64,000 bases of DNA from an uncultured virus (IMG/VR IMGVR_UViG_3300032163_000924) (IMGVR_UViG_3300032163_000924); one strand, 5' to 3'; positions 693 through 45,095 are shown, counted from the stretch's first letter. Numbers and translations: made by a program. Notes: generated from the letters alone by a model not told the origin.

Positions 693-1591
693 AATTATGT
701 AAAAAATGTAATCAAACAAAATCATTAGATAGTTTTTATCAAGCAAAAGGAGGCAGATATAGAGGTTGGTGTAAGGAATGCGAAACAAGATACAGAAAAC
801 AATATCAAATAGCAAATAAAAATAAAAACATTACTATTGCCGAAGAAAAGAAATGCGGTTCGTGCCTTATTACTAAAAAATCAAAAGACTTCCATATATG
901 TTTGGGTAATAAAGATCATTTATCAAATGCCTGTAAACAATGTAATAATAAGACAAAAAATAAACAACGGGAATTGAATAAAGCCAGAAATGATAGCGAG
1001 ATATCGTACCCAGATACGAAGAAATGCTGTGCATGTAAGGAAATTAAATTAAAAGAAAATTTTTCAAAAAGTATTAGAAATTCTGATGGTCTTCATGATA
1101 TGTGTAAAAAATGTTCTAATATCTCAATATCTAATTGGGAGAAAAATAATAAAGATAAGGTGGCAATCAAAAATAATAAACGTAGGGAAAGAAAATTACT
1201 AGTGGACGAAAATTTTAATGGTATAGAATTAGAAATAACGTATAAGATCTTTAATAATAAATGCTATAAATGTGGGAGTGATAAAGATCTGTGTGTAGAT
1301 CACAATTTCCCACTTTCAAAGGGCCATGCTCTTTGTTGCGCCAATGCTGTAATTTTATGCAAACCATGCAATTCTTCAAAGGGAACGCAAGACCCAATAG
1401 AATTTTATGCTACTGATGAATTTTTAAATCTGTGTATTTTATTTCAAAAAGCAACAAATTTGTATAACAGTATTATTTCAAATATTTTGCAAGATGGTGA
1501 GGAATATGATCATTCAAAACATTATACCGAAATGATAAGATTTTGGAATAACAATAAAAAAGAATTATTCGTGGAGAAAGGTTTGATATAG
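689..1591 (+). CDS. HNH homing-type endonuclease with repeated CxxC zinc-ribbon units
   Basis: Repeated KxCxxC...F...CKxC units, then CYKCG...VDHNFPLSKGH...N...LCKPCNSSKG HNH motif; ATG 689 overlaps the upstream TGA. Confidence 0.8.
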   Translation: MKLCKKCNQTKSLDSFYQAKGGRYRGWCKECETRYRKQYQIANKNKNITIAEEKKCGSCLITKKSKDFHICLGNKDHLSNACKQCNNKTKNKQRELNKARNDSEISYPDTKKCCACKEIKLKENFSKSIRNSDGLHDMCKKCSNISISNWEKNNKDKVAIKNNKRRERKLLVDENFNGIELEITYKIFNNKCYKCGSDKDLCVDHNFPLSKGHALCCANAVILCKPCNSSKGTQDPIEFYATDEFLNLCILFQKATNLYNSIISNILQDGEEYDHSKHYTEMIRFWNNNKKELFVEKGLI

Positions 1592-1770
1592 TGAATGATA
1601 TAACAAAAACAGTATATAAATGTTATCTTGGGCCTACTTTGGGTTATAGGACAGTATCTATAATGATTTTTGCGGAAGATGGCGGGTTATGGTTTTTCGA
1701 TAAATATAGCACAGATATCGACTCTATATTAAACTTTATTAATCGTTGTAGAGAGAAGAGCTTATTATGA
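1591..1770 (+). CDS. Small protein, KxxY N-terminal-motif family (59 aa, below ORF-track cut-off)
   Basis: GTG start overlapping upstream TAG; translates (M)NDITKTVYKCYLGPTLG...REKSLL; its stop overlaps the next ATG. Confidence 0.6.
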   Translation: MNDITKTVYKCYLGPTLGYRTVSIMIFAEDGGLWFFDKYSTDIDSILNFINRCREKSLL

Positions 1771-1955
1771 TGGCCGACAGTTGTAAGAGTTTGTATAGAA
1801 TGATTTTATTACACAAACCAATAGTAGAACAGCAAGATAATAAAATAACACTATCCAGATTTATTAATAATGTTGATGCAACCGTAATGGTTGTATTTTT
1901 TATTATGAAGGATAGACTACAATCTATATTTGATGTTATAGAGGAAATATCTTGA
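1767..1955 (+). CDS. Small protein, KxxY N-terminal-motif family
   Basis: MADSCKSLYRMIL from ATG 1770; coupled to both neighbours. Confidence 0.6.
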   Translation: MMADSCKSLYRMILLHKPIVEQQDNKITLSRFINNVDATVMVVFFIMKDRLQSIFDVIEEIS

Positions 1956-2938
1956 CCACATTTTACTTTAATCACAGAGGATCGTGGGGCGGTGGCGGCC
2001 CATCAATATTTGTGGCCAAGACAGATCAGGCACTCACTAAACTAGGGCATCAGGTTATATATGATAATCCACAAAAATCTGATGCGGCTATATGTATTGT
2101 TGAAACTGGTAAGGTTTTAAGACAAATAGATAGAAAGAAAACTAAAGTAATATTACGCTGTGACGGAATATATAATTCAATATATAATAAAAAGTTTGGC
2201 AGATCTATTAGGCCCGATATGAAGGCACTCCACGACAAGTTAAAAACTGATGTGCCAGCAGTAGATTGGGTTGTATATCAGAGCAATTGGTCAAGAGATT
2301 GTATAGAGAACGAAATAACTAAACGCGAAAGTAAATGGTCTATAATTCATAATGGCGTAGATACCAATTTATTCAAGCCCGTAATGCAACAACACGATGG
2401 CACTAATATATTTCATTTGGGCAAGATGAGAGATAATTATTTAATGGAGTGTTTAATAGGCACTTATCAAGAATTAAAACAAAGGCACAATATAAGGCTA
2501 TTATTGGTCGGTAGTATGGATGCTGCTTGTATGAATATATATAACAAATACAAAAGTGATAGTAATATCAAATATTTAGGTGCCTTTCCCAACACTAATA
2601 TTACCCAGATATTTGGCCAGGGAGATATTTACTTAGGGCCGCGCGAAGGGAGTTCTTCGGATAATGTAATAGCAGAAGCGCAAGCCTGCGGATTACCTTG
2701 TGTTATTCCAAAATTCGGCGGCAACAAAGATATGGTAATAGACAAACAAACAGGCATAGTGGTAGAGTCTAACGAATGGGATTATGGCCCAGCATATAAT
2801 AAACGACTGGCAGATGGAATAGAGGATATAATGAAAGATTTGGATGGATTTAGGGAGAGGGCAAGAAAACATGCAGTAGAAAACCTTTCTTTAGACAAAA
2901 TGGTTAATAAATACATAAATATATTACAAAAAGTGTAA
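1952..2938 (+). CDS. Glycosyltransferase family 4 (GT-B)
   Basis: GGGGP N-terminal loop, IHNGVDTNLFKP, EGSSSDNVIAEAQACGLP (Ex7E). Confidence 0.85.
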   Translation: MTTFYFNHRGSWGGGGPSIFVAKTDQALTKLGHQVIYDNPQKSDAAICIVETGKVLRQIDRKKTKVILRCDGIYNSIYNKKFGRSIRPDMKALHDKLKTDVPAVDWVVYQSNWSRDCIENEITKRESKWSIIHNGVDTNLFKPVMQQHDGTNIFHLGKMRDNYLMECLIGTYQELKQRHNIRLLLVGSMDAACMNIYNKYKSDSNIKYLGAFPNTNITQIFGQGDIYLGPREGSSSDNVIAEAQACGLPCVIPKFGGNKDMVIDKQTGIVVESNEWDYGPAYNKRLADGIEDIMKDLDGFRERARKHAVENLSLDKMVNKYINILQKV

Positions 2939-2960
2939 TTATAATAATGGGGCAAATTAA

Positions 2961-3311
2961 ATGGCAAGAAGTTGTGGGGCAGGTAGTATGAAGAGTTTAA
3001 TGGTAACTAAAGCAGGAGAAAGCGATTCTTTTCCTAGTTTGTGTTATTATATTTGGCTAAAAAGAAAGGTAGATAATAGGCTTACTTGGACATCAGAGGT
3101 TAATTTAAAAAATATGCTTTTATATACCGAAGATAGGGTTGTTAAAATTCAAATATATGATGAGGTAAAGAGAAGAACTTTGCGGAGATTTAATAGAGAT
3201 AATTTACCTATTATAGTTTCGGAGATAATTGCGTTTGCTAATATGTTTTATAATATAATTATGATTTTTGGCAAGGTATTAGTAATAGAGATAAAAAAAC
3301 GATTATTATGA
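2961..3311 (+). CDS. Hypothetical protein
   Basis: Fills gap on the coding strand and overlaps next start; no recognisable motif; start uncertain. Confidence 0.45.
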   Translation: MARSCGAGSMKSLMVTKAGESDSFPSLCYYIWLKRKVDNRLTWTSEVNLKNMLLYTEDRVVKIQIYDEVKRRTLRRFNRDNLPIIVSEIIAFANMFYNIIMIFGKVLVIEIKKRLL

Positions 3312-4080: not shown

Positions 4081-4800
4081 ATGAAAATTTTACATTTTTT
4101 AGTTGCTATGCTTTTATTCGTTTCTTGCTCTCCGAATATAAATATTTATATGCCAGAATCATCAACAAAAACTTACAATATAAAACAAGCTCATAAATCA
4201 GTTGGCGGGTTAGTTGTAGATAGAGTCGATAAACTTGCAGCATTAGAAGGGACTGCTTTTGCTATAGGAAGGGATTATCTACTTACTGCTGGTCATATTT
4301 GTGTGGCAACTTTAGAAGGCCAAGCAAATGGGATATTAGAAGATCATATTAGACTGCGAATAATAAAAGATGGAATTAAGGGAGAAATAAATAATATCAA
4401 AATAGTGGAATTGGATGAATTACATGATATATGTTTGTTAAAAAAGAAAAATCATGGATTAGTGCCCTTGGAGTTAGCTGATTATAGTATAGTAAAATTC
4501 AATGATACTGTTTGGATTGTTGGTACTCCATTTGGAATGATGCTTTCAAGTCAACAGGGCGAAGTAATGGATGTAGATTTGCAATATCCAGATCCCTTAA
4601 AGGGTAGATTGCTTGCTTCTGTTGCTGTTGCTGGAGGTAATAGTGGAAGTCCGATTATTAATGAACAAGGCAAAGTAATAGGAATGGCAGTTGTACATCT
4701 TACACAAATTTATGATCATTTAGCTGTTTGTGTTAAATCATCTGCTTTAAGAGAATTTTTAGATGCTACAGGACATAAAGGAATAGGCAAGCAAAAATAA
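4081..4800 (+). CDS. Trypsin-like (S1) serine protease, predicted lipoprotein
   Basis: LTAGH, DICLL and GNSGSP catalytic triad motifs; signal peptide ending LLFVSC. Confidence 0.85.
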   Translation: MKILHFLVAMLLFVSCSPNINIYMPESSTKTYNIKQAHKSVGGLVVDRVDKLAALEGTAFAIGRDYLLTAGHICVATLEGQANGILEDHIRLRIIKDGIKGEINNIKIVELDELHDICLLKKKNHGLVPLELADYSIVKFNDTVWIVGTPFGMMLSSQQGEVMDVDLQYPDPLKGRLLASVAVAGGNSGSPIINEQGKVIGMAVVHLTQIYDHLAVCVKSSALREFLDATGHKGIGKQK

Positions 4801-4818
4801 AAACATAGGAGTATTATT

Positions 4819-5538
4819 ATGCGAATATTAATCGCTTTATTGGGCTTGCTATATATAAATGCATGCGCAGTAAATATATGTATGCCAGAAGCTAAAGTTC
4901 AAGCGATAGGTAATAAGTATGATATAGGTCAAGCACATAAATCAGTTGGTAGTGTATTCGTGAGACAGATAAATGGTAAGTTAGAATTAAGAGGAACAGT
5001 ATTTGCAATCGATAAGGATTATTTACTTACAGCCGGACATGTTTGTGTGGGGATTGCACAGTTTCAAGATATGGGCTTGGCGGATAATAATATACGAATG
5101 GATACTGTACGAGATGGCCATAAAGGCTCACTAGATCATATAGAGATAATGGAAATTGATGAGCCCCATGATATATGTCTAATGAAAAAAGTTGATCATG
5201 GTTTAGATCCATTAGAACTTACGTCAAACTTTAATAAAGATTTAAAATTTCGAGATATTGTGTGGATAGTCGGTGCTCCATTGGGTATTGTGATGGCAGA
5301 GGCCGAGGGCAGAGTTATGGATGCTAACCCTAATCTCTCACCACCAGCAAAAGGATTATTTATAGTATCCGCCGCAGCAGCTGGTGGAAATAGCGGTAGT
5401 CCGGTTATTAATGAGCAGGGCAAAGTAGTTGGTATATTGGTTGCCGGCGTTGGAGCATTTGATCATTTAAGTTTTTGTGTTAAATCATCTACTGTTCAAA
5501 GATTTTTAAAGATAGTGGGATATGAAAGACGAGATTAA
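4819..5538 (+). CDS. Trypsin-like (S1) serine protease, paralogue of upstream gene
   Basis: LTAGH, DICLM and GNSGSP; hydrophobic N-terminus ending NAC; same length (239 aa) and collinear with 4081-4800. Confidence 0.85.
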   Translation: MRILIALLGLLYINACAVNICMPEAKVQAIGNKYDIGQAHKSVGSVFVRQINGKLELRGTVFAIDKDYLLTAGHVCVGIAQFQDMGLADNNIRMDTVRDGHKGSLDHIEIMEIDEPHDICLMKKVDHGLDPLELTSNFNKDLKFRDIVWIVGAPLGIVMAEAEGRVMDANPNLSPPAKGLFIVSAAAAGGNSGSPVINEQGKVVGILVAGVGAFDHLSFCVKSSTVQRFLKIVGYERRD

Positions 5539-5656
5539 AAGAATATATTATTCAGTATTATATGATAATCTTTTGATTGCAGAACTTTCTTTGGACGAAA
5601 CCTTATTATTGGTATTTGATAGTCAAAATAATTTCATAGAGGCGTTCGAGGTATAA
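5522..5656 (+). CDS. Small protein, KxxY N-terminal-motif family (44 aa, not in ORF track)
   Basis: MKDEIKRIYYSVLYDNLLIAELSLDETLLLVFDSQNNFIEAFEV; TAA abuts next GTG at 5657 and GAGG lies just upstream of that GTG. Confidence 0.6.
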   Translation: MKDEIKRIYYSVLYDNLLIAELSLDETLLLVFDSQNNFIEAFEV

Positions 5657-6658
5657 GTGTTGGCTGTAGTTATTAGAGATCTACCATACTTAAAAATACT
5701 GCAAAGTGTTGTGGAACAATTAAAAGAGCCATATATCTTATACCACTATGATACTTATAGGGCGGAAAAGGAATATTTAAGAGCGTCCAAAATTAATATA
5801 AATAAAGCGGCCAAATCAATCACAGAAAAGGCCCATAAAATAGTAGCCTTTTCTAATGATAACCAATTAAAGACTTGGCTGTTTAGAGATGACATAACGG
5901 AGTTAATAAGCGTAGAGATATTTCTATGGGCCAAGAAGTATATTAGAGAGTTAAAGGCAGGTGGTATAAAGCTACATAACTACCTATACTTAACTGATTC
6001 GTTATGGTTATCAGATTCCGCGTGCATTACTTCTTTTGATAAGATCTATTACCCTGCCCGATATATAAAGGAAACGCTATTAGAATTTTTGAATCTTAAA
6101 GAAGATATTGTTAGAGACCATATATATAATACTTTTACATCTATTCCTAATACAGGCAATAAGGTATTAGTATTATTACCCAATTTACAACAAGATCATA
6201 TTAATAAGGCTTTTGGCAGTAAAGAACGCTTTTTGCAAATCATAAAACAACTCGCACAACACCATACTCTTGTTTTTAAAGCCCGCCAGAAGCAATGGGT
6301 GCCTCCAGAACTCACGCAATATGGTCAGGTGGTTATGGATGGGGTTATTCAGTATCCACCCGCTATAAACGATTTATTCGCAAAGACTCATACTACCGTT
6401 ATGTTTTATTCTTCTGGTGTGTATGAGGCCGTTAGTGCTGGGCAATATGTAGTCAATATACCCATACCATTGGATCGCTGGAGTTGGGATATCGGCAAGA
6501 TGAAAAAGTATAATGTTTATAGTGCTTTATACAATAGTCCCGGAGTTGTAGAGAATGTTAGTCAGGAAGAGATTATTAACGGTAAATGGCAATTAGATAT
6601 AGGTAAGTATAATACAGTAGCTAGAGAAAAATGGATTAAGGAGTTTATTTCTTCTTAA
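5657..6658 (+). CDS. Putative GT-B-fold carbohydrate transferase
   Basis: LVFKAR and YSSGVYEA resemble the K.HP / SS...EA pattern of TagF/epimerase-like GT-B proteins; glycan-cluster context. Confidence 0.45.
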   Translation: MLAVVIRDLPYLKILQSVVEQLKEPYILYHYDTYRAEKEYLRASKININKAAKSITEKAHKIVAFSNDNQLKTWLFRDDITELISVEIFLWAKKYIRELKAGGIKLHNYLYLTDSLWLSDSACITSFDKIYYPARYIKETLLEFLNLKEDIVRDHIYNTFTSIPNTGNKVLVLLPNLQQDHINKAFGSKERFLQIIKQLAQHHTLVFKARQKQWVPPELTQYGQVVMDGVIQYPPAINDLFAKTHTTVMFYSSGVYEAVSAGQYVVNIPIPLDRWSWDIGKMKKYNVYSALYNSPGVVENVSQEEIINGKWQLDIGKYNTVAREKWIKEFISS

Positions 6659-7229
6659 GGGCAGATAATTGGATGATGCCTATACCGCCCCATTTTCTGC
6701 CTTTTATAATTTCGATTGGATTATTATATTGCGTCTTAATAGATTGCCAAAATCTAAATACAGTGCAATTTTGTTTTTTATGATGATTGGACTCCAAAAT
6801 ATCATGGAAAACTACATACCCATCAGGATTTAGTAATTTTTTGTAATATAAATAATCATTTTTAGCACCCTTAAACTTGTGGTCCCCATCAATAAACAGT
6901 AAATCAGCTTTTCCTAACTTATTTCTTTTAAGTACTTCCCCAACATTAAATTTACAAAAATCAGAGTGGCTATCTTGAGGCACTACATATAAAGTGCATC
7001 TTTCCGCTATGGGCTCTTTATTCCTAAAAAAATTCTGATGATCTACGCATATTAGATTTTTGGCGAAATAAGAAAAAGTACAAGCGCTTCCTCCTGTACA
7101 AGTGCCTATTTCTATTACTGTTTTTGGATTAACTATATTTAAAAACTTAATAAATTCTAACCATTCGGCATCTATTTGTTGTAGTCCATATTGCTCATTT
7201 GATTCTTTTAGTATTAGTTTGAAATCCAT
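6645..7229 (-). CDS. Class I SAM-dependent methyltransferase (Methyltransf_24-like)
   Basis: VIEIGTCTGGS, LLFIDGDH and VVFHD motifs; AGGAG ribosome-binding site upstream on - strand. Confidence 0.85.
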   Translation of the reverse strand: MDFKLILKESNEQYGLQQIDAEWLEFIKFLNIVNPKTVIEIGTCTGGSACTFSYFAKNLICVDHQNFFRNKEPIAERCTLYVVPQDSHSDFCKFNVGEVLKRNKLGKADLLFIDGDHKFKGAKNDYLYYKKLLNPDGYVVFHDILESNHHKKQNCTVFRFWQSIKTQYNNPIEIIKGRKWGGIGIIQLSALKKK

Positions 7230-7280: not shown

Positions 7281-7318
7281 TATAATAGATTTGTTTGTTT
7301 TTATATGGACAAATCTAT
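7281..7318 (+). promoter_or_regulatory. TATAAT box overlapped by a perfect 10-bp inverted repeat (candidate operator)
   Basis: TATAAT 7281-7286; ATAGATTTGT 7285-7294 and ACAAATCTAT 7309-7318 with 14-bp spacer, in the only divergent intergenic region. Confidence 0.5.
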
Positions 7319-7348
7319 CAATATTGTATATATAGATATGAGGCACCT

Positions 7349-8494
7349 ATGTATTCTATAAGCGAAATGGCAGAAAAACTCAATATCTCAATACAAACAT
7401 TGAGGAATTGGGATAAGAATGGAACTCTCGTAGCCAAAAGAAAGCCGTCGGGGCACAGATTTTATACTAATGAGCAATTCCTAAAAGCAGCGGGAAAAGA
7501 AAAATATATTGCTGGTGGGACTGATTTAGATGCTGTTAGGGGTAAGATTGTTTTGATTACGGGTGGCACTGGTACGTTAGGAAATGCTCTCACAGAACGG
7601 ATACATTCAATAGCTAAAAAGATCATCATATTTAGTAGAGGCGAATTGAAACAGGCTGAGATGCAGGAGAAGTTCGCTAGAAAAGAAAACATTAGATTTA
7701 TGATAGGTGATATACGAGATAAAGATCGTCTCATGTTTGCTTTACATAATGTTGAAGTATGTGTACATGCCGCTTGCATGAAGAGGGTTGACGCCTGTTC
7801 GTATAATCCGTTTGAGGCTGTAAAAAACAATATTATTGGGAGTATGAATATTGTTGAGGCTTGTATAGAAAATGGGATAAAAAGGGCATTAATGGTTTCT
7901 TCCGATAAGGCTTGTTCGGCAGCTACTTTATATGGCGGAACTAAATTTGTAGCAGAACAACTATTCATAAATGGCAATAATTATTCCAAACGAGATGGCA
8001 CAATATTCATGGCATCAAGATATGGAAATGTTATGGGCTCTAATGGTTCATTTAGAACTACAATAGAAACTCAAGCGAAAAATGGAAAAATAAAAATAAC
8101 TCATAAAGATATGACAAGATTTTTTATGTCCATTGATGAAGCCGTAAATCTTAATTTATTTGCATTAAATAATTCAATAGGTGGTGAAATATTTATACCA
8201 AAGTTAAAGGCGTCATCTTTATTGCAATTCGCAAAGGCTTTTGCGCCGAATATTCCGATTGAGTTTGTGGGCATTCGAGGCTACGAAAAAATACATGAAG
8301 ATTTGATTTCTGATACCGAAATGCTATACACGGTAGATTGTGATGATTACTACAAAATACTTCCTCCGCCAGATACATGCGGTGTAGGAACAAAGTGGGA
8401 CATAAATTATCCAAAGGAACCTGTAATAAAACCATTTAGATATTCTTCTGATAAAGTAGAGAAACTGACTACCGAAGAACTAAGAGAACTTTGA
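7349..8494 (+). CDS. pseB: MerR/IS607-type HTH fused to UDP-GlcNAc 4,6-dehydratase (PseB/FlaA1 family)
   Basis: N-terminal YSISEMAEKLNISIQTLRNWD...PSGHRFY HTH; ITGGTGTLG, GDIRD, HAACMKRV, SSDKA, YGGTK, RYGNVMGS, MTRFF and EKIHE motifs. ATG 7349 follows GAGG. Confidence 0.85.
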   Translation: MYSISEMAEKLNISIQTLRNWDKNGTLVAKRKPSGHRFYTNEQFLKAAGKEKYIAGGTDLDAVRGKIVLITGGTGTLGNALTERIHSIAKKIIIFSRGELKQAEMQEKFARKENIRFMIGDIRDKDRLMFALHNVEVCVHAACMKRVDACSYNPFEAVKNNIIGSMNIVEACIENGIKRALMVSSDKACSAATLYGGTKFVAEQLFINGNNYSKRDGTIFMASRYGNVMGSNGSFRTTIETQAKNGKIKITHKDMTRFFMSIDEAVNLNLFALNNSIGGEIFIPKLKASSLLQFAKAFAPNIPIEFVGIRGYEKIHEDLISDTEMLYTVDCDDYYKILPPPDTCGVGTKWDINYPKEPVIKPFRYSSDKVEKLTTEELREL

Positions 8495-10569: not shown

Positions 10570-10833
10570 ATGATGGATAATATAACTAAATCACTTTACA
10601 TACTGTATACCAAATATCATTATGCTTGGGGCTATCCAATTTACGATACTGATATGAAAGATATGTATAAACAAATATGTTTTGAAAGCTCAAGTCCGCA
10701 ATATTTGGAAAAGATTATAGATGCGAGTATAAGTATGGCCATTACGGATGCTATAAAAAATCATTCTGTGAATGCCAACGAGTTATTCAATGTTAGTAAA
10801 GGCGTTAAGAATTTTATCAAGACGCATTCATAA
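10570..10833 (+). CDS. Small protein, KxxY N-terminal-motif family
   Basis: MDNITKSLYILY from ATG 10573. Confidence 0.6.
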   Translation: MMDNITKSLYILYTKYHYAWGYPIYDTDMKDMYKQICFESSSPQYLEKIIDASISMAITDAIKNHSVNANELFNVSKGVKNFIKTHS

Positions 10834-13653: not shown

Positions 13654-13875
13654 ATGCCACAATTGAAGTTAATGTATAATAAGATTTTAAAAGATCAATC
13701 AACTATAAAGACAGTGATCCAAGGTAGTTATGATCTTGCTAGTGATAAAGACTCGATATTCGTGTTTTTGGACTGGTGGAAATATAACGAGACCTACGTA
13801 ATAAAATTTAAAAAAAATAGATTAGTACAAGTAATGAAAGATGGCAAATCGGATTGGAAGGAATATATGTTATGA
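13654..13875 (+). CDS. Small protein, near-match to KxxY family
   Basis: MPQLKLMYNKIL; GGAG upstream. Confidence 0.5.
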   Translation: MPQLKLMYNKILKDQSTIKTVIQGSYDLASDKDSIFVFLDWWKYNETYVIKFKKNRLVQVMKDGKSDWKEYML

Positions 13876-13885
13876 TGGAGGAAAG

Positions 13886-14815: not shown

Positions 14816-15525
14816 TAGTTGTAATAATTCAGGCCAGAACAAAAAGCTCTCGTTTTCCGCGTAAGATATATGAGGATATCAATGGCAAATATACTTTACA
14901 GCGTGTACTAGAAGGCGTCACCAAGGCTCAAATTCCTCATAAAATAATTTTGGTTGTACCGCAATATGATCAGCAAGAATTTTTTGAACGACAAGAAAAT
15001 GGAGATTTTGCTAAATATACAGATAAGCGGTTTTCTACTTATTTTGGTAGTGCAGATGATTTGGTAGATAGATATTTTCAAGCTGCGCGTTTAAATTGTG
15101 CGGATCTGATAGTGCGAATTACAGCTGATTGCCCACTATCTCAAGGTAAACTCATAGATGAAATGCTTTGCGAATATTGGAAGAACGGCTATAATGGGTT
15201 TATGGGTAATAATCCTTTAGTTTCTGATGTTCCCTATCCAGATGGAGTTGATATAGAAATATTTCCGTATTGGATGCTTGCAGAGACTTGGCAACTAACG
15301 CAAGATCCATATAATCGAGAGCATGTCACTCCATTTATGTATCGTAGAGGAACTCAATACAAAATACATCCTTTTCGCAACAATAGACCCAACACTATGA
15401 TTTCTACCCGTTTCCCAGATTTTTCCTTTGATACACCTGAAGATTTAGTACTGATTAAAAAGATTTGTACACAGTATGATCAGCACGAAAATCTCGATAA
15501 AGCCATAAAGGAAACGGTATTATGA
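14812..15525 (+). CDS. spsF: Cytidylyltransferase (SpsF/PseF family)
   Basis: IIQARTKSSRFPRK, GSADDLVDRY, VRITADCP, REHVTPF and DTPED motifs. Confidence 0.85.
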   Translation: MIVVIIQARTKSSRFPRKIYEDINGKYTLQRVLEGVTKAQIPHKIILVVPQYDQQEFFERQENGDFAKYTDKRFSTYFGSADDLVDRYFQAARLNCADLIVRITADCPLSQGKLIDEMLCEYWKNGYNGFMGNNPLVSDVPYPDGVDIEIFPYWMLAETWQLTQDPYNREHVTPFMYRRGTQYKIHPFRNNRPNTMISTRFPDFSFDTPEDLVLIKKICTQYDQHENLDKAIKETVL

Positions 15526-15710
15526 ATGATTATGTTAAAATATTATATTGCCATATTCTTACTAGTGGTATAGAAATATTAGATTACAATAAATGCGAAA
15601 AATATATAGATTTGACTATTAGAACTATACAAAAGTTTGATGACGATAGTATTGAAAGAGAGTATCCATTTGAAATATACTTACAACAAAACATAAGACT
15701 TGAACAATGA
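15522..15710 (+). CDS. Small protein, KxxY N-terminal-motif family
   Basis: MNDYVKILYCHIL; ATGA overlaps on both sides. Confidence 0.6.
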   Translation: MNDYVKILYCHILTSGIEILDYNKCEKYIDLTIRTIQKFDDDSIEREYPFEIYLQQNIRLEQ

Positions 15711-18698: not shown

Positions 18699-18884
18699 AT
18701 GCAATACGATAATAAGTTTGGTATAATAGTAATAAATCTATTATATCGTGCTGTATTTCAAGAGGAAAGGAAGGATTGTACAAGAACTATGAAACAACTT
18801 ATAGAGAGTTATGGAATGATTAATGATTTAGGCGCACAACTAGTAATGGCGCAAGTAGATTATTGGCAAGAGAAATACAAATGA
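18699..18884 (+). CDS. Small protein, near-match to KxxY family
   Basis: IVINLLYRAVF near N-terminus; coupled to next small ORF. Confidence 0.45.
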   Translation: MQYDNKFGIIVINLLYRAVFQEERKDCTRTMKQLIESYGMINDLGAQLVMAQVDYWQEKYK

Positions 18885-19072
18885 AAGAGGAAACAAAAAT
18901 ATTATACACTCTTATCTTTTTTATAGAAAGCTCTGACGAACGTAGAACAATGCCTTATGATAAAAAAATAACTTTGATGAAATCTATATTAAGATTAGCT
19001 AAATGTAAAATTAAAAATTATGCTTTTATAGATAAATACAATGCAACCAAGAATACTATATGTAATAACTAG
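18881..19072 (+). CDS. Small protein, KxxY N-terminal-motif family
   Basis: MKEETKILYTLIF from ATG 18881, overlapping upstream TGA. Confidence 0.6.
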   Translation: MKEETKILYTLIFFIESSDERRTMPYDKKITLMKSILRLAKCKIKNYAFIDKYNATKNTICNN

Positions 19073-23098: not shown

Positions 23099-23416
23099 AT
23101 GACAATGTGCAGTGAGGGCGTTAAGGAATTATATGAATGCTTTTTTAAATATCTTTATGGCGGTAAAAAATTAGACTACGCAGTTCATAGTGTGTCTTTT
23201 AAAAGGGGCGCACTTATTATATTTTACAGAAATAAAATCAAAAACGGTGTAATAAGAACACATGGTGCCGAAAAAACAGTAGAGAATAATAAAAAAATTA
23301 TAAATAGAGTATTTATTATGAATTATTCTTCTAATGTATTGATGAATATAGGATTATTACAAACTATGCAAGACCCTGATTTGGTGAGGTTTTTGGATGA
23401 ATGGGCAGATGAATGA
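23099..23416 (+). CDS. Small protein, near-match to KxxY family
   Basis: MCSEGVKELYECFF from ATG 23105. Confidence 0.55.
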   Translation: MTMCSEGVKELYECFFKYLYGGKKLDYAVHSVSFKRGALIIFYRNKIKNGVIRTHGAEKTVENNKKIINRVFIMNYSSNVLMNIGLLQTMQDPDLVRFLDEWADE

Positions 23417-23579: not shown

Positions 23580-24140
23580 ATGCTGGTTGGTGAAAAAGTT
23601 ATATTGGAAGAGATAGATCCGGCAAATATAGAACAATTGAGAAAATGGAGAAATGATCCGTTAATACGCAAATACTTTAGAGAATATAAAGATATAACTG
23701 TGGATGAGCAAGTTAAGTGGTATCATGAACGTGGTAATAATTCTGACAAATCTTTTGTATATTTTCAAATTACACATACACATAAGCCTCTTGGTGGAAG
23801 TGTTTTATTAGGATGTTGCGGTTTAACTGGAATAGATTTTAGATTACGAAAGGCTGAGCTGTCTATATTTTTGGGATCTGGCCGTGGTGAAGGTAATGGA
23901 ATGGATGCTTTAAAGTTGCTATTTGATTACGGATTTAAAGAATTAAATTTGCACAAAATATTCGCAGAAGTGTATGATAATAACGAAGCCTTACGAATAT
24001 ACAAAAAGTTAGGTATGGCAGAGGATGGTATATTGAGGGATAGTTATTTTCACGAAGGACGATATGGTAATTCAATTATGCTTTCTATGCTTGAAGATGA
24101 ATGGCGTAATAAATATGGAGACAAACCATTATGGAAGTAA
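23580..24140 (+). CDS. GNAT N-acetyltransferase (PseH-like)
   Basis: LRKWRNDP.IRKY, AELSIFLG, GFKELNLHKIFAEV, N..AL..YKKLG and EDGILR motifs. Confidence 0.85.
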   Translation: MLVGEKVILEEIDPANIEQLRKWRNDPLIRKYFREYKDITVDEQVKWYHERGNNSDKSFVYFQITHTHKPLGGSVLLGCCGLTGIDFRLRKAELSIFLGSGRGEGNGMDALKLLFDYGFKELNLHKIFAEVYDNNEALRIYKKLGMAEDGILRDSYFHEGRYGNSIMLSMLEDEWRNKYGDKPLWK

Positions 24141-24325
24141 ATGATATTAATGATTCGGTATATAACTTGTATTCAGAGATACTTGAGCCACGATACTATG
24201 AACAAAAAATATTTGTTGAGTGGAGAGTTCCAAATGAGTATAGAGTTCGTATAAATAATTTTTATAAAGGGTTATTCACTAGCAGTGTTGAATGTTCTTT
24301 ATTCGCAAAGGAGAATGTAATATAA
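24131..24325 (+). CDS. Small protein, near-match to KxxY family
   Basis: INDSVYNLYSEIL near N-terminus. Confidence 0.5.
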   Translation: MEVNDINDSVYNLYSEILEPRYYEQKIFVEWRVPNEYRVRINNFYKGLFTSSVECSLFAKENVI

Positions 24326-25281
24326 AAAAACGATCTATAACAGATTGTCACAAGTTAGCAAAAAGATATGGTGGTAAATGCTTATCCAAAAAATATATCA
24401 ATGCTATTACAAAAATATTGTGGGAATGTAAAGACAATCACTGTTGGTATGCTACTTTTGATAATGTAAATCATAATCATTGGTGCCCAAAATGCGCTAT
24501 AAAAAATAATGCAGAAAAACAAAAATTAATAAATGGTTTGTATATAGCAAGGCGAATTGCTGAAAAAAGAGGCGGAAAGTGTTTATCTAATGAATATGTA
24601 AATAGTAAAATAAAAATGCATTGGGAATGTGAAATAAAACATACGTGGTGGGTTAAATTTACACACATTCAACAAGGACATTGGTGTCCAAAGTGTTCAT
24701 TTATATCTCTTGCCGAAAAAAACAGATCCGATGGACTAAAAATAGCACAACAGATAGCAACAGAACTGGGAGGAGAGTGTTTATCTGAAAAATATACTAA
24801 TTGTGATGAACATCTTGAATGGAAATGTAAAAATGAACATAAGTGGTCAGCATCATTATACAATGTTAAGAATAATAAAACTTGGTGTCCTGAATGTCAT
24901 ATTTTTAGAAATCAAAATTTTTTATCAGATATGATGAAAGATATATTTCCACGATATACTATTAGAAATAATTATCGTGGATTCGAATGGTTAGCCAATA
25001 AGTCCGGTCACAAACAAGAATTGGATATTTATATAGAAGAAATTAAGTTGGCCATAGAATATGATGGACAACAACATTTTATGCCAATTAATTTCGGCGG
25101 TTGTTCGGAAAGGATGGCTAAAGAAAATCTTAAAAAGACAAAAAGATTAGATAAGATTAAAAATAAAAAAGTTAAACAACATTCAGAGGATATAGAATAT
25201 TTTATACGATTTAATTACAATGATAATTTATCAAAAGAAAATATTATTTCAAAATTAAAAGCAAATGGCATAGTTTTGTAA
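24292..25281 (+). CDS. Free-standing zinc-ribbon-repeat endonuclease
   Basis: Three GGKCLS..Y...W.C...H.W...WCP.C repeats; ELDIYIEEIKLAIEYDGQQHF. Confidence 0.8.
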   Translation: MFFIRKGECNIKKRSITDCHKLAKRYGGKCLSKKYINAITKILWECKDNHCWYATFDNVNHNHWCPKCAIKNNAEKQKLINGLYIARRIAEKRGGKCLSNEYVNSKIKMHWECEIKHTWWVKFTHIQQGHWCPKCSFISLAEKNRSDGLKIAQQIATELGGECLSEKYTNCDEHLEWKCKNEHKWSASLYNVKNNKTWCPECHIFRNQNFLSDMMKDIFPRYTIRNNYRGFEWLANKSGHKQELDIYIEEIKLAIEYDGQQHFMPINFGGCSERMAKENLKKTKRLDKIKNKKVKQHSEDIEYFIRFNYNDNLSKENIISKLKANGIVL

Positions 25282-25526
25282 TGAGTTATTTTTGGAAGAA
25301 ACCAGGTATATTGGGTCCAGAATCATTGCATATAAAAGATTTGTATCGTTATTTATTGGTATGCGGATATAGTGTAAGGCATTTATATTCGCCTACTGAT
25401 AAAGAAAAAATACACAACGAATTTTCACATATGTTTTTGGGCTCTGAAAAAATATATACTGTTGTGGTATCAGACCAGGTTGATGATAGGGCAATTATAT
25501 ATTTACAAGAGGAGAATGAAAAATAA
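25281..25526 (+). CDS. Small protein, near-match to KxxY family
   Basis: ESLHIKDLYRYLL after a short N-terminal extension. Confidence 0.5.
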   Translation: MSYFWKKPGILGPESLHIKDLYRYLLVCGYSVRHLYSPTDKEKIHNEFSHMFLGSEKIYTVVVSDQVDDRAIIYLQEENEK

Positions 25527-31542: not shown

Positions 31543-32432
31543 GTAATTTGCTTTGTGTTTTGGGCGCGGAAAAGACAGGAACATCTACTTTGGTTGGTAT
31601 GTTAAATTGTCATCCAAAAATATTTATTATGCATGAGTGGTTTGTGGATAAAAAAGCCACTAGACACGGTAGCTATTCCTATACTTTTGATCCAAATATA
31701 AAGAAGGTAATGAGACGACATTCAAAACATTCGGTAGGAATATTATTTAAAGGAATGGCTAACCAGTTTGAAAAAGCAAAATATAACTATACATACTTCG
31801 GGGACAAGTGGGCAGAACTTGGCGATCTAAATAAAATAAAAGCAAGGATAAGTGATTTCGAAAGTTGTAGTGAAGTAAAAACTATATTCGCAATCAGAGA
31901 TATTAGAACTTGGATTTGTCATGAAAATATAAAAAAGATGTATAATAATGAAGACAATATCGTTCCAGTAGCTATTGATTATTTATATTATTATATAAAT
32001 AGTTTTAAATTGAAAAATAATATACAGGTTAGGATAGAGGATGTAATTTCTGATTATGACGCAGTATTGAAAAAGATACATTTATTTCTACAACCAGATA
32101 TAAATGATTTTATTATTCATGCTAACAAATGGTGGACAAAGATTGGCATTCCTAATTTTGGGTATAATACATTTCCAAAGACAACTCATAAATGGTGGTT
32201 ACATCATGGCTCTGCTCGCATAAAACCCAAACAAGCCCATATAGATGTTAAATTAAAATCTCATATATTTTGGGACGCAATATTACCGATTTTTGATAAA
32301 TACTATAATGGCAAAGTGGTATTAGGGGAGGTAGATATGGACTTACAAAATATACTTGATATGAAAGATTTATATAAAGCATCTATGGCAGAATGTTATG
32401 AGAATATAGTGTATAATAATTACAGAGTATGA
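31539..32432 (+). CDS. Sulfotransferase-family protein, paralogue of 28189-29061
   Basis: VLGAEKTGTS...LNCHP, YFGDKWA, IRDIRTW and WW...SA.IKP shared with the upstream copy. Confidence 0.8.
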   Translation: MSNLLCVLGAEKTGTSTLVGMLNCHPKIFIMHEWFVDKKATRHGSYSYTFDPNIKKVMRRHSKHSVGILFKGMANQFEKAKYNYTYFGDKWAELGDLNKIKARISDFESCSEVKTIFAIRDIRTWICHENIKKMYNNEDNIVPVAIDYLYYYINSFKLKNNIQVRIEDVISDYDAVLKKIHLFLQPDINDFIIHANKWWTKIGIPNFGYNTFPKTTHKWWLHHGSARIKPKQAHIDVKLKSHIFWDAILPIFDKYYNGKVVLGEVDMDLQNILDMKDLYKASMAECYENIVYNNYRV

Positions 32433-32440
32433 GATCTATT

Positions 32441-32686
32441 ATGAATAATATAATAAAAATGATATATCATACTCAAATGGAAGACGACGTGGGACAAAAT
32501 ATAATAAAATCACTCGAATGGTTTAATGATACAGAAATAATAGGGTTACAAGAGAGTAAAGTATATTTTATATATGCAGATGCGGCCGCAAAACTATACA
32601 ATTTTCTTGTAAACAAAGATAGTTTAATAGAAGCCGGAATAAATAAGCGAAACAAAATAATAGCCAAATACGGATTTAAGAAATGA
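32441..32686 (+). CDS. Small protein, KxxY N-terminal-motif family
   Basis: MNNIIKMIYHTQM from ATG 32441 (alternative ATG 32429). Confidence 0.55.
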   Translation: MNNIIKMIYHTQMEDDVGQNIIKSLEWFNDTEIIGLQESKVYFIYADAAAKLYNFLVNKDSLIEAGINKRNKIIAKYGFKK

Positions 32687-33609: not shown

Positions 33610-33822
33610 ATGAAAACGAAACAGATTAGAGTATCAGATGCCGTAATAAAAACGCTGGATGACTTGGCCGAAGAGTATGATATTGATAGAAAATCTCTGG
33701 TTAATGTATCTTTGGTTATTATGAAATGGGCATTAGAAAATAAAGCTAACACCATTGAGATTACCGATGCGGAAGGCGTCAAGAAAAGTATGATAATACC
33801 ACTGATCGTAGGAAAGAAATGA
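33610..33822 (+). CDS. Ribbon-helix-helix (CopG/Arc-like) DNA-binding protein
   Basis: KQIRVSD beta strand then helices LDDLAEEYDI and RKSLVN; GAGGTG RBS. Confidence 0.6.
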   Translation: MKTKQIRVSDAVIKTLDDLAEEYDIDRKSLVNVSLVIMKWALENKANTIEITDAEGVKKSMIIPLIVGKK

Positions 33823-37082: not shown

Positions 37083-38195
37083 ATGAAGAAAATATTAGGA
37101 ATTTTGTGTTTGGTATTAGCGGCGTGTATTCAAACTTCACAGGCGGCTACACCAGCTCCAGTTAAAGGATACATAGTTGTATTTAAAGATAGTGTTGGAA
37201 GTGTGCCGGATGTAGCAAACGAAATGGCCAAGCAACATGCCTTTAAAGTTGATAGAACTTATGGAGTTGCTCTTAAAGGATTTACTGCAAAGATGCCCGC
37301 GGCTGTATTGGACAAAGTAAAAGCCGACGCAAGAGTTCAGTATGTAGAGGAAGATGTTGAGGCATCAGCATTAGGGATATCAGAAACATTTATAACAAAT
37401 AGCTTGCTTGCGATAGATTGCTCAACTCAACCATTACAAAAAATTGATTATGGTGTTAAGCGTGTAGGTGGTGGTATTACTACTTCTAATCATATAGCTT
37501 GGATAATTGATACTGGTATTGATTTAGTTAGTTGCGACCTAAATATTGATTTGATGCGCAGTAAAAACTTTGTACCTCTTGAAACCAGCCCACAGGATAA
37601 AAATGGACACGGAACTCATGTAGCCGGAATTATTGCCGCAAAGAATAATGGCATAGGAACTGTTGGCGTAACACCAGATACCCGTGTAGTTGCTGTTAGA
37701 GTATTGGGGGCAACTGGAACAGGGGCATCATCAACTATTTTAGCTGGTGTTGATTATGTTGCTAAATCTGGAACAGCCGGAGATGTAGTAAATATGAGTT
37801 TGGGTTTTGCTGGTCATCTCCAAAGTTATCACGATGCTATTAACAAGACGGCTAATTTAGGAATATTCTTTGCTATATCGGCTGGCAATAGTGCGGCCAA
37901 TACTGCGGGCTATGAACCAGCGCATGTAGAAAATAGTAGAGTATTTACAGTTTCGGCTATAAGCAGCACTGATACTTTTGCTTCATTTTCTAATTGGGGT
38001 AATCCACCTGTTGATTTTGCCGCTCCTGGTATGAGTATTTTATCTACCAAAATGGGTGGTGGAACTATGTATATGAGTGGCACCTCTATGGCAGCACCTC
38101 ATGTAGCAGGTTTATTATTACTTGGTGTTGTTCATACAGATAAATATGCTATTGGGGATCCTGATGGTAATCCAGATCCAATAGCACATAATTAA
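37083..38195 (+). CDS. Secreted subtilisin-family (S8) protease with I9 propeptide
   Basis: Signal peptide; YIVVFK...GF...VQYVEED propeptide; IIDTGI, HGTHVAG, SAGN and SGTSMAAPHVAG. Confidence 0.95.
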   Translation: MKKILGILCLVLAACIQTSQAATPAPVKGYIVVFKDSVGSVPDVANEMAKQHAFKVDRTYGVALKGFTAKMPAAVLDKVKADARVQYVEEDVEASALGISETFITNSLLAIDCSTQPLQKIDYGVKRVGGGITTSNHIAWIIDTGIDLVSCDLNIDLMRSKNFVPLETSPQDKNGHGTHVAGIIAAKNNGIGTVGVTPDTRVVAVRVLGATGTGASSTILAGVDYVAKSGTAGDVVNMSLGFAGHLQSYHDAINKTANLGIFFAISAGNSAANTAGYEPAHVENSRVFTVSAISSTDTFASFSNWGNPPVDFAAPGMSILSTKMGGGTMYMSGTSMAAPHVAGLLLLGVVHTDKYAIGDPDGNPDPIAHN

Positions 38196-41535: not shown

Positions 41536-42609
41536 ATGGCAAACAGAAACTCAGATGGTACATTTATAAGTACTTTTAATATAACAAAGAAAGAGTTAAA
41601 TCATTTGTATTGGGAAATGTGGATGAGCGTATCTAAGATAGCGACATTAAAAAATGTAAATAGAACAACAATAATAAGAAAATTAAATCAATTAAACATA
41701 CATAAAAGAAACGGAAATGAAATTGATATGCGCAACATAAAATTTGGAAAATTAACTGGTATTAAATTAATTGGATCTAGAAATAGAAGATCAATATGGT
41801 TGTTTAAATGCGATTGTGGTAATAAAATAGAATATTCTGGTTGTGATGTTAGAAATGGGCACTCGTCCTCGTGTCGACGATGTGATGAGATAGATTTAAT
41901 AAATAAAAAATTCGGAAAATTAAAGGTTTTCAAAACTTTTTATAAAAATATAAAAGTTCGGAATAAAAGCGTAAATAGATTATTTTGTGAAGTTATGTGT
42001 GAGTGTAATAAATGCACTATCGTTTCGGCCGGACACTTAAAGACTGGACATACTACCTCATGTGGTAATATGATTTGCAATGGACTTATTGAAGATTTAT
42101 CTGGGAAACAGTTTTGTATGTTAAAAGTAATAGAATTCTCACACACTGAAAATGGACAATCAAAATGGAAGTGTGAGTGCAGGTGTGGAAAAATAAAAGT
42201 TATTGGGGCAAATACTTTAAAAATGGGAACAACTCAATCTTGCGGGTGTTGTAGGAATATTAACGAAACTAATCTAGAAGACATATTAAAAAATATTTTT
42301 CCAAAATTTGTAATAAAAAGACATTATAGTACTAAATTTTTAAAGCGACAACATTTGGATTTTGGAATAATAAATGATAAAGAATGTTTTTTGGCAATAG
42401 AATATGATGGAATACAACATTTTGAGGCAATTGAATTTTTTGGCGGAAAGAAAAGATTTAAAGAACAACAGGAGAGAGATCAAAGAAAAAATAAAATAAT
42501 GGCGGATAATATAGACAAAATAAAATATTTTATTAGAATTCCATATTGGGAAGATATAAGTGAAAAAAATATAATAAAAATTTTAAAAGATAGTGGGGTA
42601 AATTTATGA
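41536..42609 (+). CDS. Free-standing endonuclease with N-terminal HTH, KFGKL/CxCG repeats and Vsr-like domain
   Basis: ELNHLYW...SVSKIA HTH; three KFGKL...C.C..G...SC repeats; LAIEYDGIQHF and FIRIPYW. Confidence 0.8.
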   Translation: MANRNSDGTFISTFNITKKELNHLYWEMWMSVSKIATLKNVNRTTIIRKLNQLNIHKRNGNEIDMRNIKFGKLTGIKLIGSRNRRSIWLFKCDCGNKIEYSGCDVRNGHSSSCRRCDEIDLINKKFGKLKVFKTFYKNIKVRNKSVNRLFCEVMCECNKCTIVSAGHLKTGHTTSCGNMICNGLIEDLSGKQFCMLKVIEFSHTENGQSKWKCECRCGKIKVIGANTLKMGTTQSCGCCRNINETNLEDILKNIFPKFVIKRHYSTKFLKRQHLDFGIINDKECFLAIEYDGIQHFEAIEFFGGKKRFKEQQERDQRKNKIMADNIDKIKYFIRIPYWEDISEKNIIKILKDSGVNL

Positions 42610-43583: not shown

Positions 43584-43898
43584 ATGAACTATGACAAAAA
43601 ACCTTGGGGTTATGAGTTAGTATGGGCAAATACGGAGGCATATTCTGGTAGGGTATTGATAATCAAGCAGGGGGATTCGACAAATTTTTTATATCACAAG
43701 ACGCGAGACAAGACAATATTTGTTTTACAAGGCATAGTTAATCTGATACTAGAAAGTAGAACTAAACTATTGAATGAAGGCGAGCAATACCATATTCCTG
43801 CAAAAGTTATGCATCAATTAGTGGCAGTAAAGGGAGACGCAACTATATTAGAATCAGGAACTAAACTGTTAGATGATGTAATAGAGATAAAAAGGTAA
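43584..43898 (+). CDS. Cupin (mannose-6-phosphate-isomerase-like)
   Basis: KPWGYE, YH...DKTIFVLQG and HIPAKVMHQL motifs. Confidence 0.75.
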   Translation: MNYDKKPWGYELVWANTEAYSGRVLIIKQGDSTNFLYHKTRDKTIFVLQGIVNLILESRTKLLNEGEQYHIPAKVMHQLVAVKGDATILESGTKLLDDVIEIKR

Positions 43899-43900
43899 AT

Positions 43901-44872
43901 ATGGATAATACTCAATATGCCAAGCAATTATGTTTAGAACGCGATTATCATAAGTGTAGACATTGTGGTTCTACTAATGAATTAGATGTACGTAGATTGA
44001 TAGAACGAGATGGCGCACTGGGATGGCATTTATCAAACCTAATAAGCCTTTGTAATAATTGTGCATCAGAATCAGAGGAGGCACGTTTAAACTACAAACA
44101 TAATCGAATAGGTGTTATTCTTTGCGGTGGTCGTGGAACTAGGCTATACCCATTGACCAAATATCAGAACAAGCATACGTTGCCAATAGGATTAGTTCCT
44201 ATGATTTTTTATCCGCTCAAAACCTTACGCAAATTTGGGATTAGACGGGTTTTGATTGTTGTTGATCGTGAAGGAACTAATGCGACTATGGAAATGTTGG
44301 GTAGTGGTAAGGAATTCGGTTTAGATATTTCCTATAAAGTTCAGGAAGGGGCCGGCGGTATTTCGGAAGCTCTGTATTTAGCTAAAGATTTTGCACAACC
44401 AAGAGATGAAATAGTTTGTATTTTAGGAGATAATATATTTGAAGATGGGGATGTGGATTTTAATATAAATCTTGGCGATGATAAAGCTTGTATCTATGTC
44501 AAAGAAGTTTCAAACCCACAAGACTATGGTGTTGCTACTACGCTTGGTGGCAAAGTTGTTCGAATAATAGAAAAGCCAAAGCAACCAGAAAGTAATTTAG
44601 CTGTTGTAGGATTGTATCTCTATACTTACGATGTATTTGATATTATAGAGACTATTAGGCCTAGTGATCGTGGCGAGTTAGAGATAAGTGCAGTAAATGA
44701 TTATTATGCATCGCAAAACAAATTACAATTCAAAATGGTAAATGGATACTGGGGCGACGCTGGTGGTTCAATTCGTAGATATGCAGAATGTAATATGCAT
44801 GGAGTTAAGAAGGCAAATGTTTCGGCAAAAGAGATAGAAGAATTCAAAAATATAGTTTTTGATGAGAAATAA
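43901..44872 (+). CDS. rmlA: Glucose-1-phosphate thymidylyltransferase with N-terminal degenerate HNH domain
   Basis: GVILCGGRGTRLYPLT, LGSGKEFG, ILGDN, EKP, RGELEI and WGDAG; first ~65 aa ERD...CRHCG...NLISLCNNC. Confidence 0.85.
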   Translation: MDNTQYAKQLCLERDYHKCRHCGSTNELDVRRLIERDGALGWHLSNLISLCNNCASESEEARLNYKHNRIGVILCGGRGTRLYPLTKYQNKHTLPIGLVPMIFYPLKTLRKFGIRRVLIVVDREGTNATMEMLGSGKEFGLDISYKVQEGAGGISEALYLAKDFAQPRDEIVCILGDNIFEDGDVDFNINLGDDKACIYVKEVSNPQDYGVATTLGGKVVRIIEKPKQPESNLAVVGLYLYTYDVFDIIETIRPSDRGELEISAVNDYYASQNKLQFKMVNGYWGDAGGSIRRYAECNMHGVKKANVSAKEIEEFKNIVFDEK

Positions 44873-44873
44873 T

Positions 44874-45095
44874 ATGGCTATGAAACGAGAGGTAAGATGC
44901 ACTTACTTGGCTGTTTTAAAAGAGAATGCAATGATCGTTGGGGTTGATGAGTTGATAAATTTTTATGAGGATTACGCAAAATTTAGACAAAAAATGTTGA
45001 ACAATACTGCTGCACCAAATTCTCTAAAAGCCCAATTGCAGCCGATAAGTATGCCACAATATGTAGAGTGGCTAAAAAAGATGACGGATAAATAA
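44874..45095 (+). CDS. Small protein, near-match to KxxY family
   Basis: MKREVRCTYLAVL from ATG 44880. Confidence 0.5.
   Translation: MAMKREVRCTYLAVLKENAMIVGVDELINFYEDYAKFRQKMLNNTAAPNSLKAQLQPISMPQYVEWLKKMTDK

Follow-up and report, generated by a model that had tools for sequence, protein, structure and literature searches.

Small proteins with a conserved, predicted amphipathic first helix at gene junctions of a huge-phage glycan island

What are the many small proteins that begin alike between the sugar enzymes of a phage, and what keeps their beginnings alike? The question is raised by a stretch of 64,000 nucleotides (nt), here termed the window, from the uncultured virus IMGVR_UViG_3300032163_000924 of IMG/VR. 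Between positions 1591 and 45,095 of this window, small open reading frames (ORFs) that open with the pattern M-x-[DEN]-x-x-K-x-[LIV]-Y, or with something close to it, occur at the gene junctions of a nonulosonic-acid and glycan island, inside tightly packed operons that they share with the enzymes. The metabolic islands of huge phages are large and their organisation is barely understood; at 1.5–33 kb of this one, about one third of the genes encode small proteins of one uncatalogued, helix-marked family. At least 15 small-protein genes of the window have a first helix that is conserved at the protein level, and almost all of them lie in the glycan island. The favoured reading, to which we give a probability of about 0.55, is that they are a clade-restricted multigene family of uncultured huge phages, with a common first amphipathic helix and paralogue-specific bodies.

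The consensus of the helix is [DEN]-x-x-[KR]-x-phi-Y-x-x-phi-phi (phi, hydrophobic), and in the phage of the window it usually stands right after the initiator methionine. The members are 44–105 amino acids (aa) long, and no signal peptide or membrane segment is evident in them by eye. They are listed here with their motif beginnings:

1591..1770, + strand: member of 59 aa, GTG start, MNDITKTVYKCYL; exact motif
1767..1955, + strand: member of 61–62 aa, (M)MADSCKSLYRMIL; exact motif; ATGA overlap on each side
5522..5656, + strand: member of 44 aa, MKDEIKRIYYSVL; exact motif; abuts the downstream gene of 333 aa
8491..8679, + strand: near member of 61–62 aa, MDPRMILCYMYVF; follows the MerR-PseB-like gene
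10570..10833, + strand: member of 86–87 aa, (M)MDNITKSLYILYT; exact motif
13654..13875, + strand: near member of 73 aa, MPQLKLMYNKIL; canonical motif in orthologues
15522..15710, + strand: member of 62 aa, MNDYVKILYCHIL; exact motif; junction of cytidylyltransferase and GNAT
18699..18884, + strand: near member of 61 aa, motif at residues 11–20 (IVINLLYRAVF)
18881..19072, + strand: member of 63 aa, MKEETKILYTLIF; exact motif; 32-nt overlap with the next gene
23099..23416, + strand: near member of 103–105 aa, MCSEGVKELYECFF; core motif plus one extra residue
23397..23579, + strand: member of 56–60 aa, MNEEVKGIYRAIF; exact motif
24131..24325, + strand: near member of 64 aa, MEVNDINDSVYNLYSEIL (ORF start MEVNDINDSVYNLY)
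25281..25526, + strand: near member of 81 aa, motif internal, at residues 14–26 (ESLHIKDLYRYLL)
32429..32686, + strand: member of 81–85 aa, MNNIIKMIYHTQM; exact motif; ATGA overlap on each side
44859..45095, + strand: near member of 71–78 aa, MKREVRCTYLAVL; junction of RmlA-like and RmlB-like genes

The first-pass annotation had named eight exact copies, at 1591, 1770, 5522, 10573, 15522, 18881, 23409 and 32441, and seven near matches, at 8494, 13654, 18699, 23105, 24131, 25281 and 44880, and all fifteen are present as described. Each exact copy opens a small + strand ORF, seven with ATG and one (1591) with GTG. Six-frame translation of the window finds the ATG form seven times on the + strand, always at an ORF start, and never on the − strand. 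The core [DEN]xxKx[LIV]Y has 11 + strand matches, nine of which lie at residues 3–10 of small ORFs (the remaining two are at 56779 and 61064), and two − strand matches. The member at 15522 has the highest score with a hidden Markov model (HMM) of the family, 23.8 bits, and in 24131 the motif is displaced by four residues and has Tyr instead of Lys.

These counts exceed what composition alone provides. In 300 second-order Markov simulations, the six-frame translation yielded a mean of 0.24 hits and a maximum of 2. In 2000 residue shuffles of 87 + strand ORFs, which were chosen mechanically with a 30-nt overlap filter that excluded the 18881 ORF, the mean was 0.021 N-terminal hits and the maximum 1, compared to 7 observed among the 26 small ORFs of this set and 0 among its 61 large ones. 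The motif is thus commoner than by chance, with 7–8 copies observed against 0.02–0.24 expected. The earlier claims also hold that no large enzyme starts with the pattern and that none was seen after 45 kb, where the strict pattern has no match. The positional residue frequencies of the 61 large N-termini give an expected rate of 6.8e-5 per protein. Moreover, a relaxed helix motif, [KR]-x-[LIVT]-Y-x-x-[LIVAM]-[LFMV] within the first 28 residues, is found in 7 of 30 small ORFs and in none of the 61 large ones, and it has no site elsewhere in the 18,001 residues of the window ORFs.

The conservation acts on the protein, since the conserved residues are written with varying codons. Codons were compared in 14 members, eight from the window and six from L014, the closest relative (a neighbouring gene is 68% identical). 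Lys6 is encoded by AAA in 11 and AAG in 3, and Tyr9 by TAT in 8 and TAC in 6; position 8 uses eight different codons, which have only the middle T in common, and the 24 nt upstream of the members carry at most 0.6 bit per column. This agrees with the earlier claim of mixed codons, differing DNA and selection at the protein level. Coupling to neighbours, claimed as well, is tight: 11 of the 15 members overlap or abut the upstream neighbour (at 1591, by a 1-nt overlap with the upstream stop), and 14 of the 15 overlap the downstream neighbour or lie within 2 nt of it.

The shared segment is of the amphipathic helix type, as had been proposed. In 23 of 25 members, the hydrophobic moment of residues 2–14 is greater at 100 degrees than at 170 degrees; hydrophobic residues occupy helix positions 5, 8, 9, 12 and 13. 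On a helical wheel, Lys would stand at the edge of the hydrophobic face and [DEN] at the N-cap site. Comparison of paralogue with paralogue by BLASTP gives short N-terminal matches only, at E values above 0.003, and hhalign, applied to two orthologue pairs, extends over 14 N-terminal columns and no further. AlphaFold predicts, with low confidence, a helix at residues 3–13 and three strands for 23409 (predicted local distance difference test score, pLDDT, 64) and a helix at residues 2–14 and five strands for 13654 (pLDDT 57).

Do the bodies behind this helix vary freely? The first-pass annotation had described the members as unrelated after about 13 residues and as hypervariable cargo. The former is correct between paralogues, in which about 14 columns align; between orthologues, the bodies are conserved. 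By BLASTP, 13654 is 39% identical to L014:825 over 70 aa (E 2e-16), 23409 is 40% identical to L014:13564 over 55 aa (E 1e-11), and 25281 is 30% identical to L014:16667 over 44 aa (E 3e-3). In addition, 1591 matches a 67-aa ORF of the relative G001 (47% over 57 aa, E 6e-13), with further orthologues in P0016 and P0017, and 44880 matches an 82-aa ORF of G001 (46% over 68 aa, E 2e-20). In the alignment of five 13654 sequences, three columns are invariant in the first 13 residues and ten afterwards. The flanking enzymes are 46–68% identical across these contigs, compared to 30–47% for the small proteins, which therefore evolve somewhat faster and are not hypervariable; the description as hypervariable cargo fails on bodies conserved over their full length at 39–47% identity. 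On these sequence comparisons, the small ORFs are real genes, each paralogue with its own conserved body.

An exhaustive profile search with the 13654 pair, against 1.84 billion representatives with no length limit, returned 10 proteins at E ≤0.001. Four are small (73–76 aa), and the six long ones, which match in several short repeated stretches each, are taken as compositional. The 13654 orthologues P0003, P0004 and P0006 begin with MNEGLRLLYEQIL, MNEGIRLLYEQIL and MNGGFKTLYTQVL; the atypical beginning of 13654 in the window is thus that of a diverged canonical copy. Word-indexed searches returned one sequence for 23409 (the query itself) and three each for the pairs of 44880 and 1591. Split or fused forms were considered and rejected: flanking enzymes are equally long whether or not a relative has the small ORFs, and the 13654 search returned only small proteins and compositional long matches. 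The 88-aa ORF L014:16667-16933 contains the helix motif twice, as MDKKVKDTYLGML and, 17 residues on, as NTQEVKNIYAYLL, and 25281 aligns to the second copy.

The orthologues also bear on whether the segment must sit at a free N-terminus, as an N-terminal tag would. In G001, the 1591 orthologue starts with MARKLNDTDYVYRCYLG, with a good ribosome-binding site ahead, and the 44880 orthologue with MTSKRIPVKRELKWIYKALLK; the 44880 orthologues of G001 and P0014 read ...VKRE[LI]KW[IL]Y[KR]ALLK after eight extra residues. The same leading extensions recur in the 1591 and 44880 orthologues of other contigs, with 4–8 residues before the helix. The helix starts at residue 1–2 in eight window members and is shifted by 4–16 residues in 24131, in 25281 and in the 1591 and 44880 orthologues. 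The leading residues point to a first helix rather than a tag bound to the free N-terminus, and together with the shifted motifs of 24131 (by 4) and 25281 (by 16), they suggest that the position at the initiator methionine is this lineage's compact version.

How widely is the family spread? In L014, eight members occur in the 21 kb read. A profile built from 21 N-termini matches G001 (206 kb) twice, both times in the island, in the slots of window 15522 and 8494, and several degenerate members can be seen by eye. The slot of 15522 holds MIDPAIVKLYEAVL in G001 and MNVAIKDIYIKML in L014, and that of 8494 holds an 80-aa ORF in G001, MIDPVLQFLYQWTL, with a weak C-terminal BLASTP match (E 5e-4). 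The pair 18699 and 18881 occupies a junction whose flanking genes overlap in G001, which has no ORF there. The pair 23105 and 23409 precedes a GNAT gene, as do L014:13333 and L014:13564. In the more distant islands L015, L016, L017 and L020, the motif is found in none of eight small ORFs, and enzyme genes adjoin directly where the window, L014 or G001 hold a small ORF: the GNAT gene directly follows the upstream gene, and in L016 the cytidylyltransferase gene overlaps it. It therefore counts as an accessory family, whose genes are acquired and lost at junctions and which occurs in only part of a single clade.

A wider spread of the motif was also considered. A degenerate DNA pattern for MN[DE]xxKx-phi-Yxx[IVM][LF] has 55 loci in IMG/VR, with one match each and all on different contigs by eye, which is about the chance number on a hand estimate (roughly 20–50); the matches fall in unrelated proteins or away from ORF starts, and none belongs to a cluster like that of the window. 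The 13654 alignment, run against IMG/VR, brought up a single false positive: the one long ORF of this 2.3-kb contig is RNA polymerase-like by eye. With neighbouring enzymes as queries, G001 was the sole contig recovered from IMG/VR. Contigs of the sequencing run were identical pieces or unrelated, with no close variant for counting synonymous against non-synonymous changes.

No library lists the small-protein family, as the first-pass annotation had supposed. Pfam has no family for the members at E below 0.089, the best PHROGs hit is a partial match to a family of unknown function (E 0.0019), the single NCBIfam match scores 16 bits against a cut-off of 122, and the best of the PDB profiles has E 0.46. 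With the low-confidence 23409 model, Foldseek gave no match at E 0.001 in PDB and BFVD, and a wide VIA-align search gave no clear one, its best (Z 4.8) being with helix-on-sheet domains. ESM Atlas gave no usable match, and a description of the motif or family was not found in the full-text literature, of which subscription journals are outside coverage.

What might the conserved helix do? It appears to be an interaction or packing surface. Under the favoured reading, the family would have spread via duplication or insertion at gene junctions, followed by divergence, and the helix would be retained as a common working surface. Its hydrophobic face (5, 8, 9, 12 and 13) would pack or dock, and the invariant Tyr and the near-invariant Lys at the edge of the face would make a shared contact. 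The variable body would then confer a specificity particular to each paralogue, with the products of adjacent sugar-pathway genes as the most plausible targets. A docking partner common to all members is possible, and naming the protein that the helix contacts would be speculation. Since the enzymes occur in relatives without the small proteins, the latter are probably modulators or adaptors rather than obligatory subunits.

If the helix is a common docking element, the phage would itself encode a device that organises or regulates a sugar pathway or that sorts small proteins, and the 13-residue handle would be open to direct testing. If the helix is merely the best-kept part of a fast-diverging domain, the members are an ordinary orphan family, which is still useful for genome annotation.

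Several observations weigh against this reading. Similarity by hhalign beyond the 14 columns is nil. The structure models are of low confidence, from alignments of two and five sequences, and demonstrate neither packing of the helix on the sheet nor a common fold of the bodies. The 44880 and 10573 bodies look helical, both by eye and in their periodicity, so the members may not be one homologous fold. Lys6 is lost in the G001-type orthologues of 1591, and a possible degenerate member of G001, MSKDVLWIYANLL, appears outside the island in the replication module, a location deduced from the neighbouring zinc-ribbon ORF. Lastly, start codons and gene choice were assigned mechanically.

Some of these points are shared by the alternative that the helix is a true address tag, K-x-phi-Y-x-x-phi-phi, particular to this lineage, which takes at least 15 structurally unrelated small proteins to a single hub as a portable docking helix. 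Candidate hubs would be a scaffold for glycan synthesis, a compartment of the phage, or, in the manner of the T4 capsid-targeting sequence, the core of the prohead. This alternative fits the fact that only the first 14 or so columns are common to paralogues, and that the secondary structure of the bodies seems to be of more than one class. Moreover, 1591 and 44880 have lost 4–8 leading residues in the window lineage, bringing the helix to residue 2–3 as in the other members, as if a single N-terminal format were favoured. The T4 internal proteins, too, are diverse and have only the targeting sequence conserved (PMC3012670). If an address tag it is, either the glycan-building enzymes are assembled as an organised complex or small effectors are loaded, for example into the capsid; each small protein would be co-translated with a different sugar-pathway enzyme, and the tag would have been trimmed to the N-terminus in the window lineage. 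We nevertheless consider this reading rather unlikely, because orthologues tolerate 4–8 residues before the helix, a helix with a sheet in both modelled members also fits a single small domain, no candidate hub was found, no constant cleavage motif follows the helix, and the genes are dispersed in enzyme operons instead of clustered by head genes. The last two points also tell against the capsid-targeting sequence that the first-pass annotation had offered as one option.

Other functions of a conserved N-terminus fare worse. An N-terminal degradation signal for a host AAA+ protease, for example of ClpXP type, would give the small proteins a short, timed life, and the stretch polar-x-[T/phi]-K-x-phi, close to a free N-terminus, resembles the N-terminal signals by which ClpX recognises lambda O and Dps. 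The spacing is unlike that of the ClpX motif, orthologues have 4–8 leading residues and have lost the Lys, and the segment is predicted to be helical and amphipathic and not an exposed tail; this makes a degradation signal improbable. Precursors of ribosomally synthesised and post-translationally modified peptides (RiPPs), also suggested earlier, would use the conserved segment as a leader for the enzymes or proteases of the island and the variable remainder as a core, and several proteases and transferases are indeed close by. A scan of the 63 larger proteins at E 1e-5 found no maturase or recognition-element family (22 of the 63 have no family), the trypsin-like proteins have lipoprotein-like signal starts and the S8 protease a signal-like start by eye and should thus act outside the cytoplasm, and the bodies are 30–90 residues long, 30–47% identical between orthologues and predicted to contain strands. 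The window members also have 0–2 Cys and 5–16% Ser+Thr, and their genes are dispersed and not grouped beside one enzyme, so that such precursors seem highly improbable. Finally, the pattern might have no protein function, as a by-product of AT-rich, coupled start-codon contexts or of chance: the codons of the conserved residues N, D, K, I and Y are AT-rich, and coupling to a neighbouring gene is seen in most members. This is strongly disfavoured and is the least probable explanation, given that equally coupled large genes lack the pattern (0 of 61), that the null expectations lie so far below the observed 7–8 copies, that the motif is kept with other codons in G001 at 41% GC, and that orthologues are conserved in frame over their full length.

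The genomic setting is that of a huge-phage genome, of which the window is a piece. It is AT-rich, with a GC content of 31–38% and a positive GC skew throughout, and its + strand carries every long ORF except one. A gene at 6645-7229 on the − strand (194 aa) is the sole convincing − strand gene where both strands were listed, and by eye its product resembles a methyltransferase dependent on S-adenosylmethionine. The relatives of the window are metagenome contigs of 206, 289 and 468 kb, and GenBank phages have no near match to window 46–62 kb. The 206-kb contig G001 (L001–L013) has a completeness of 25% by its source's estimate; with relatives of up to 468 kb, the genomes of the clade are probably several hundred kb in size.

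A Pfam scan of the 63 ORFs of at least 100 aa, at E 1e-5, delimits the sugar island to 0 to about 46 kb. Its enzymes include a PseB-like dehydratase, a DegT aminotransferase, two NeuB-type synthases, a cytidylyltransferase, a class-III aminotransferase, RmlA/B/D-like proteins and a UDP-glucose dehydrogenase-like protein. Its transferases are GT2, GT1, a formyltransferase, a sulfotransferase, methyltransferases and two GNATs, and its proteases two trypsin-like and one S8. The PseB-like dehydratase (Polysacc_synt_2) at 7295-8494 is fused to an N-terminal MerR-type helix-turn-helix, and this N-terminus recurs in G001 and L020. The RmlA-like nucleotidyltransferase at 43901-44872 has its Pfam domain from residue 71, and its first 65 or so residues contain CxxC...CxxC, so that they resemble a small zinc-finger or HNH-like extension. 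The tandem trypsin-like pair (4081-5538), with lipoprotein-like N-termini by eye, and the S8 subtilase with an I9 propeptide (37083-38195) lie in or beside the island. At about 20985-21800 and 33820-34900, each of two long open frames overlaps an ORF whose alternative start lies far upstream; judged by eye, the products are formyltransferase-like in one case and glycosyltransferase-like in the other, and the gene starts 21751 and 34621 are probably placed too far upstream.

From 46 kb on, the scan finds a TubZ-like tubulin, a UvsW-like helicase, DnaB, PrkA, DUF444, an intein-bearing SpoVR, a diadenylate-cyclase domain and a sigma factor. The tubulin, the diadenylate-cyclase (DAC) domain protein and the factor, which is sigma-70-like, are encoded downstream of the island at 46720-48135 and 62742-63988. 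A phage-borne PrkA, DUF444 and SpoVR triad extends over 54673-62005, with a LAGLIDADG domain in the SpoVR intein and a 361-aa Cys-repeat ORF between DUF444 and SpoVR (57991-59076).

Five paralogous endonuclease-like genes are also present (13841-14815, 24292-25281, 25529-26461, 41536-42609 and 48139-49275). They share tandem treble-clef zinc-ribbon repeats, with DUF4379 in four of the five, and a common C-terminal block (...LAIEYDG.QHF...) that is nuclease-domain-like. Three of them directly adjoin the small members 13654, 24131 and 25281. No such gene adjoins the 13654 orthologue in L014, and this suggests recent insertion of the endonuclease-like genes at the same junctions. An origin of the small proteins from homing-endonuclease-like zinc-ribbon repeats of the DUF4379 type was rejected, as an HMM of 16 repeats from four of the genes scores at most 1.8 bits against 25 small proteins.

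How, then, does the family compare with known systems? LYR-motif proteins (Complex1_LYR, PF05347) are small proteins whose N-terminal helix carries L-Y-[RK]-x-[LI]-[LF] and which fold as a three-helix bundle. Members of the present family that read LYRMIL, IYRAIF, LYRAVF, LYRYLL or LYKMLL resemble them, but this likeness is superficial. None of the 14 members compared matches the LYR family of Pfam at E up to 1, R or K comes after the Tyr in only 8 of 25, both modelled bodies are beta-sheets (at low confidence) and not three-helix bundles, and the Pfam scan shows no acyl carrier protein in the island. RiPP precursors are likewise conserved at the N-terminus and divergent beyond it, with modifying enzymes close by. 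They differ in that the bodies of the window members are long, structured and conserved, with dispersed genes, and in that a maturase or recognition domain was not found with them.

In T4, the prohead-protease site after the targeting peptide is [LI]-x-E. In the first 30 residues of the present members, [LI]xE is found in 9 of 25, at positions 8–26 and in no fixed register, and the T4 consensus may not be that of this phage. The T4 internal proteins carry a conserved N-terminal targeting peptide of about 10 residues and are otherwise diverse, so that a short conserved N-terminal peptide on diverse small phage proteins is common to both systems (PMC3012670). The genes of the window are interleaved with glycan enzymes, whereas those of T4 have their own locus, and the window bodies are conserved rather than variable as in an arms race.

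A further parallel is with jumbo phages, in which clade-restricted multigene families of small accessory proteins are made up of divergent paralogues that belong to no database family and turn over between relatives. The family described here likewise has many divergent, uncatalogued paralogues, limited to a clade and subject to turnover. Unlike those families, its members recognisably share the first helix only, and almost all of its copies stand singly or in pairs at the enzyme-gene junctions of one metabolic island instead of in an early-gene array.

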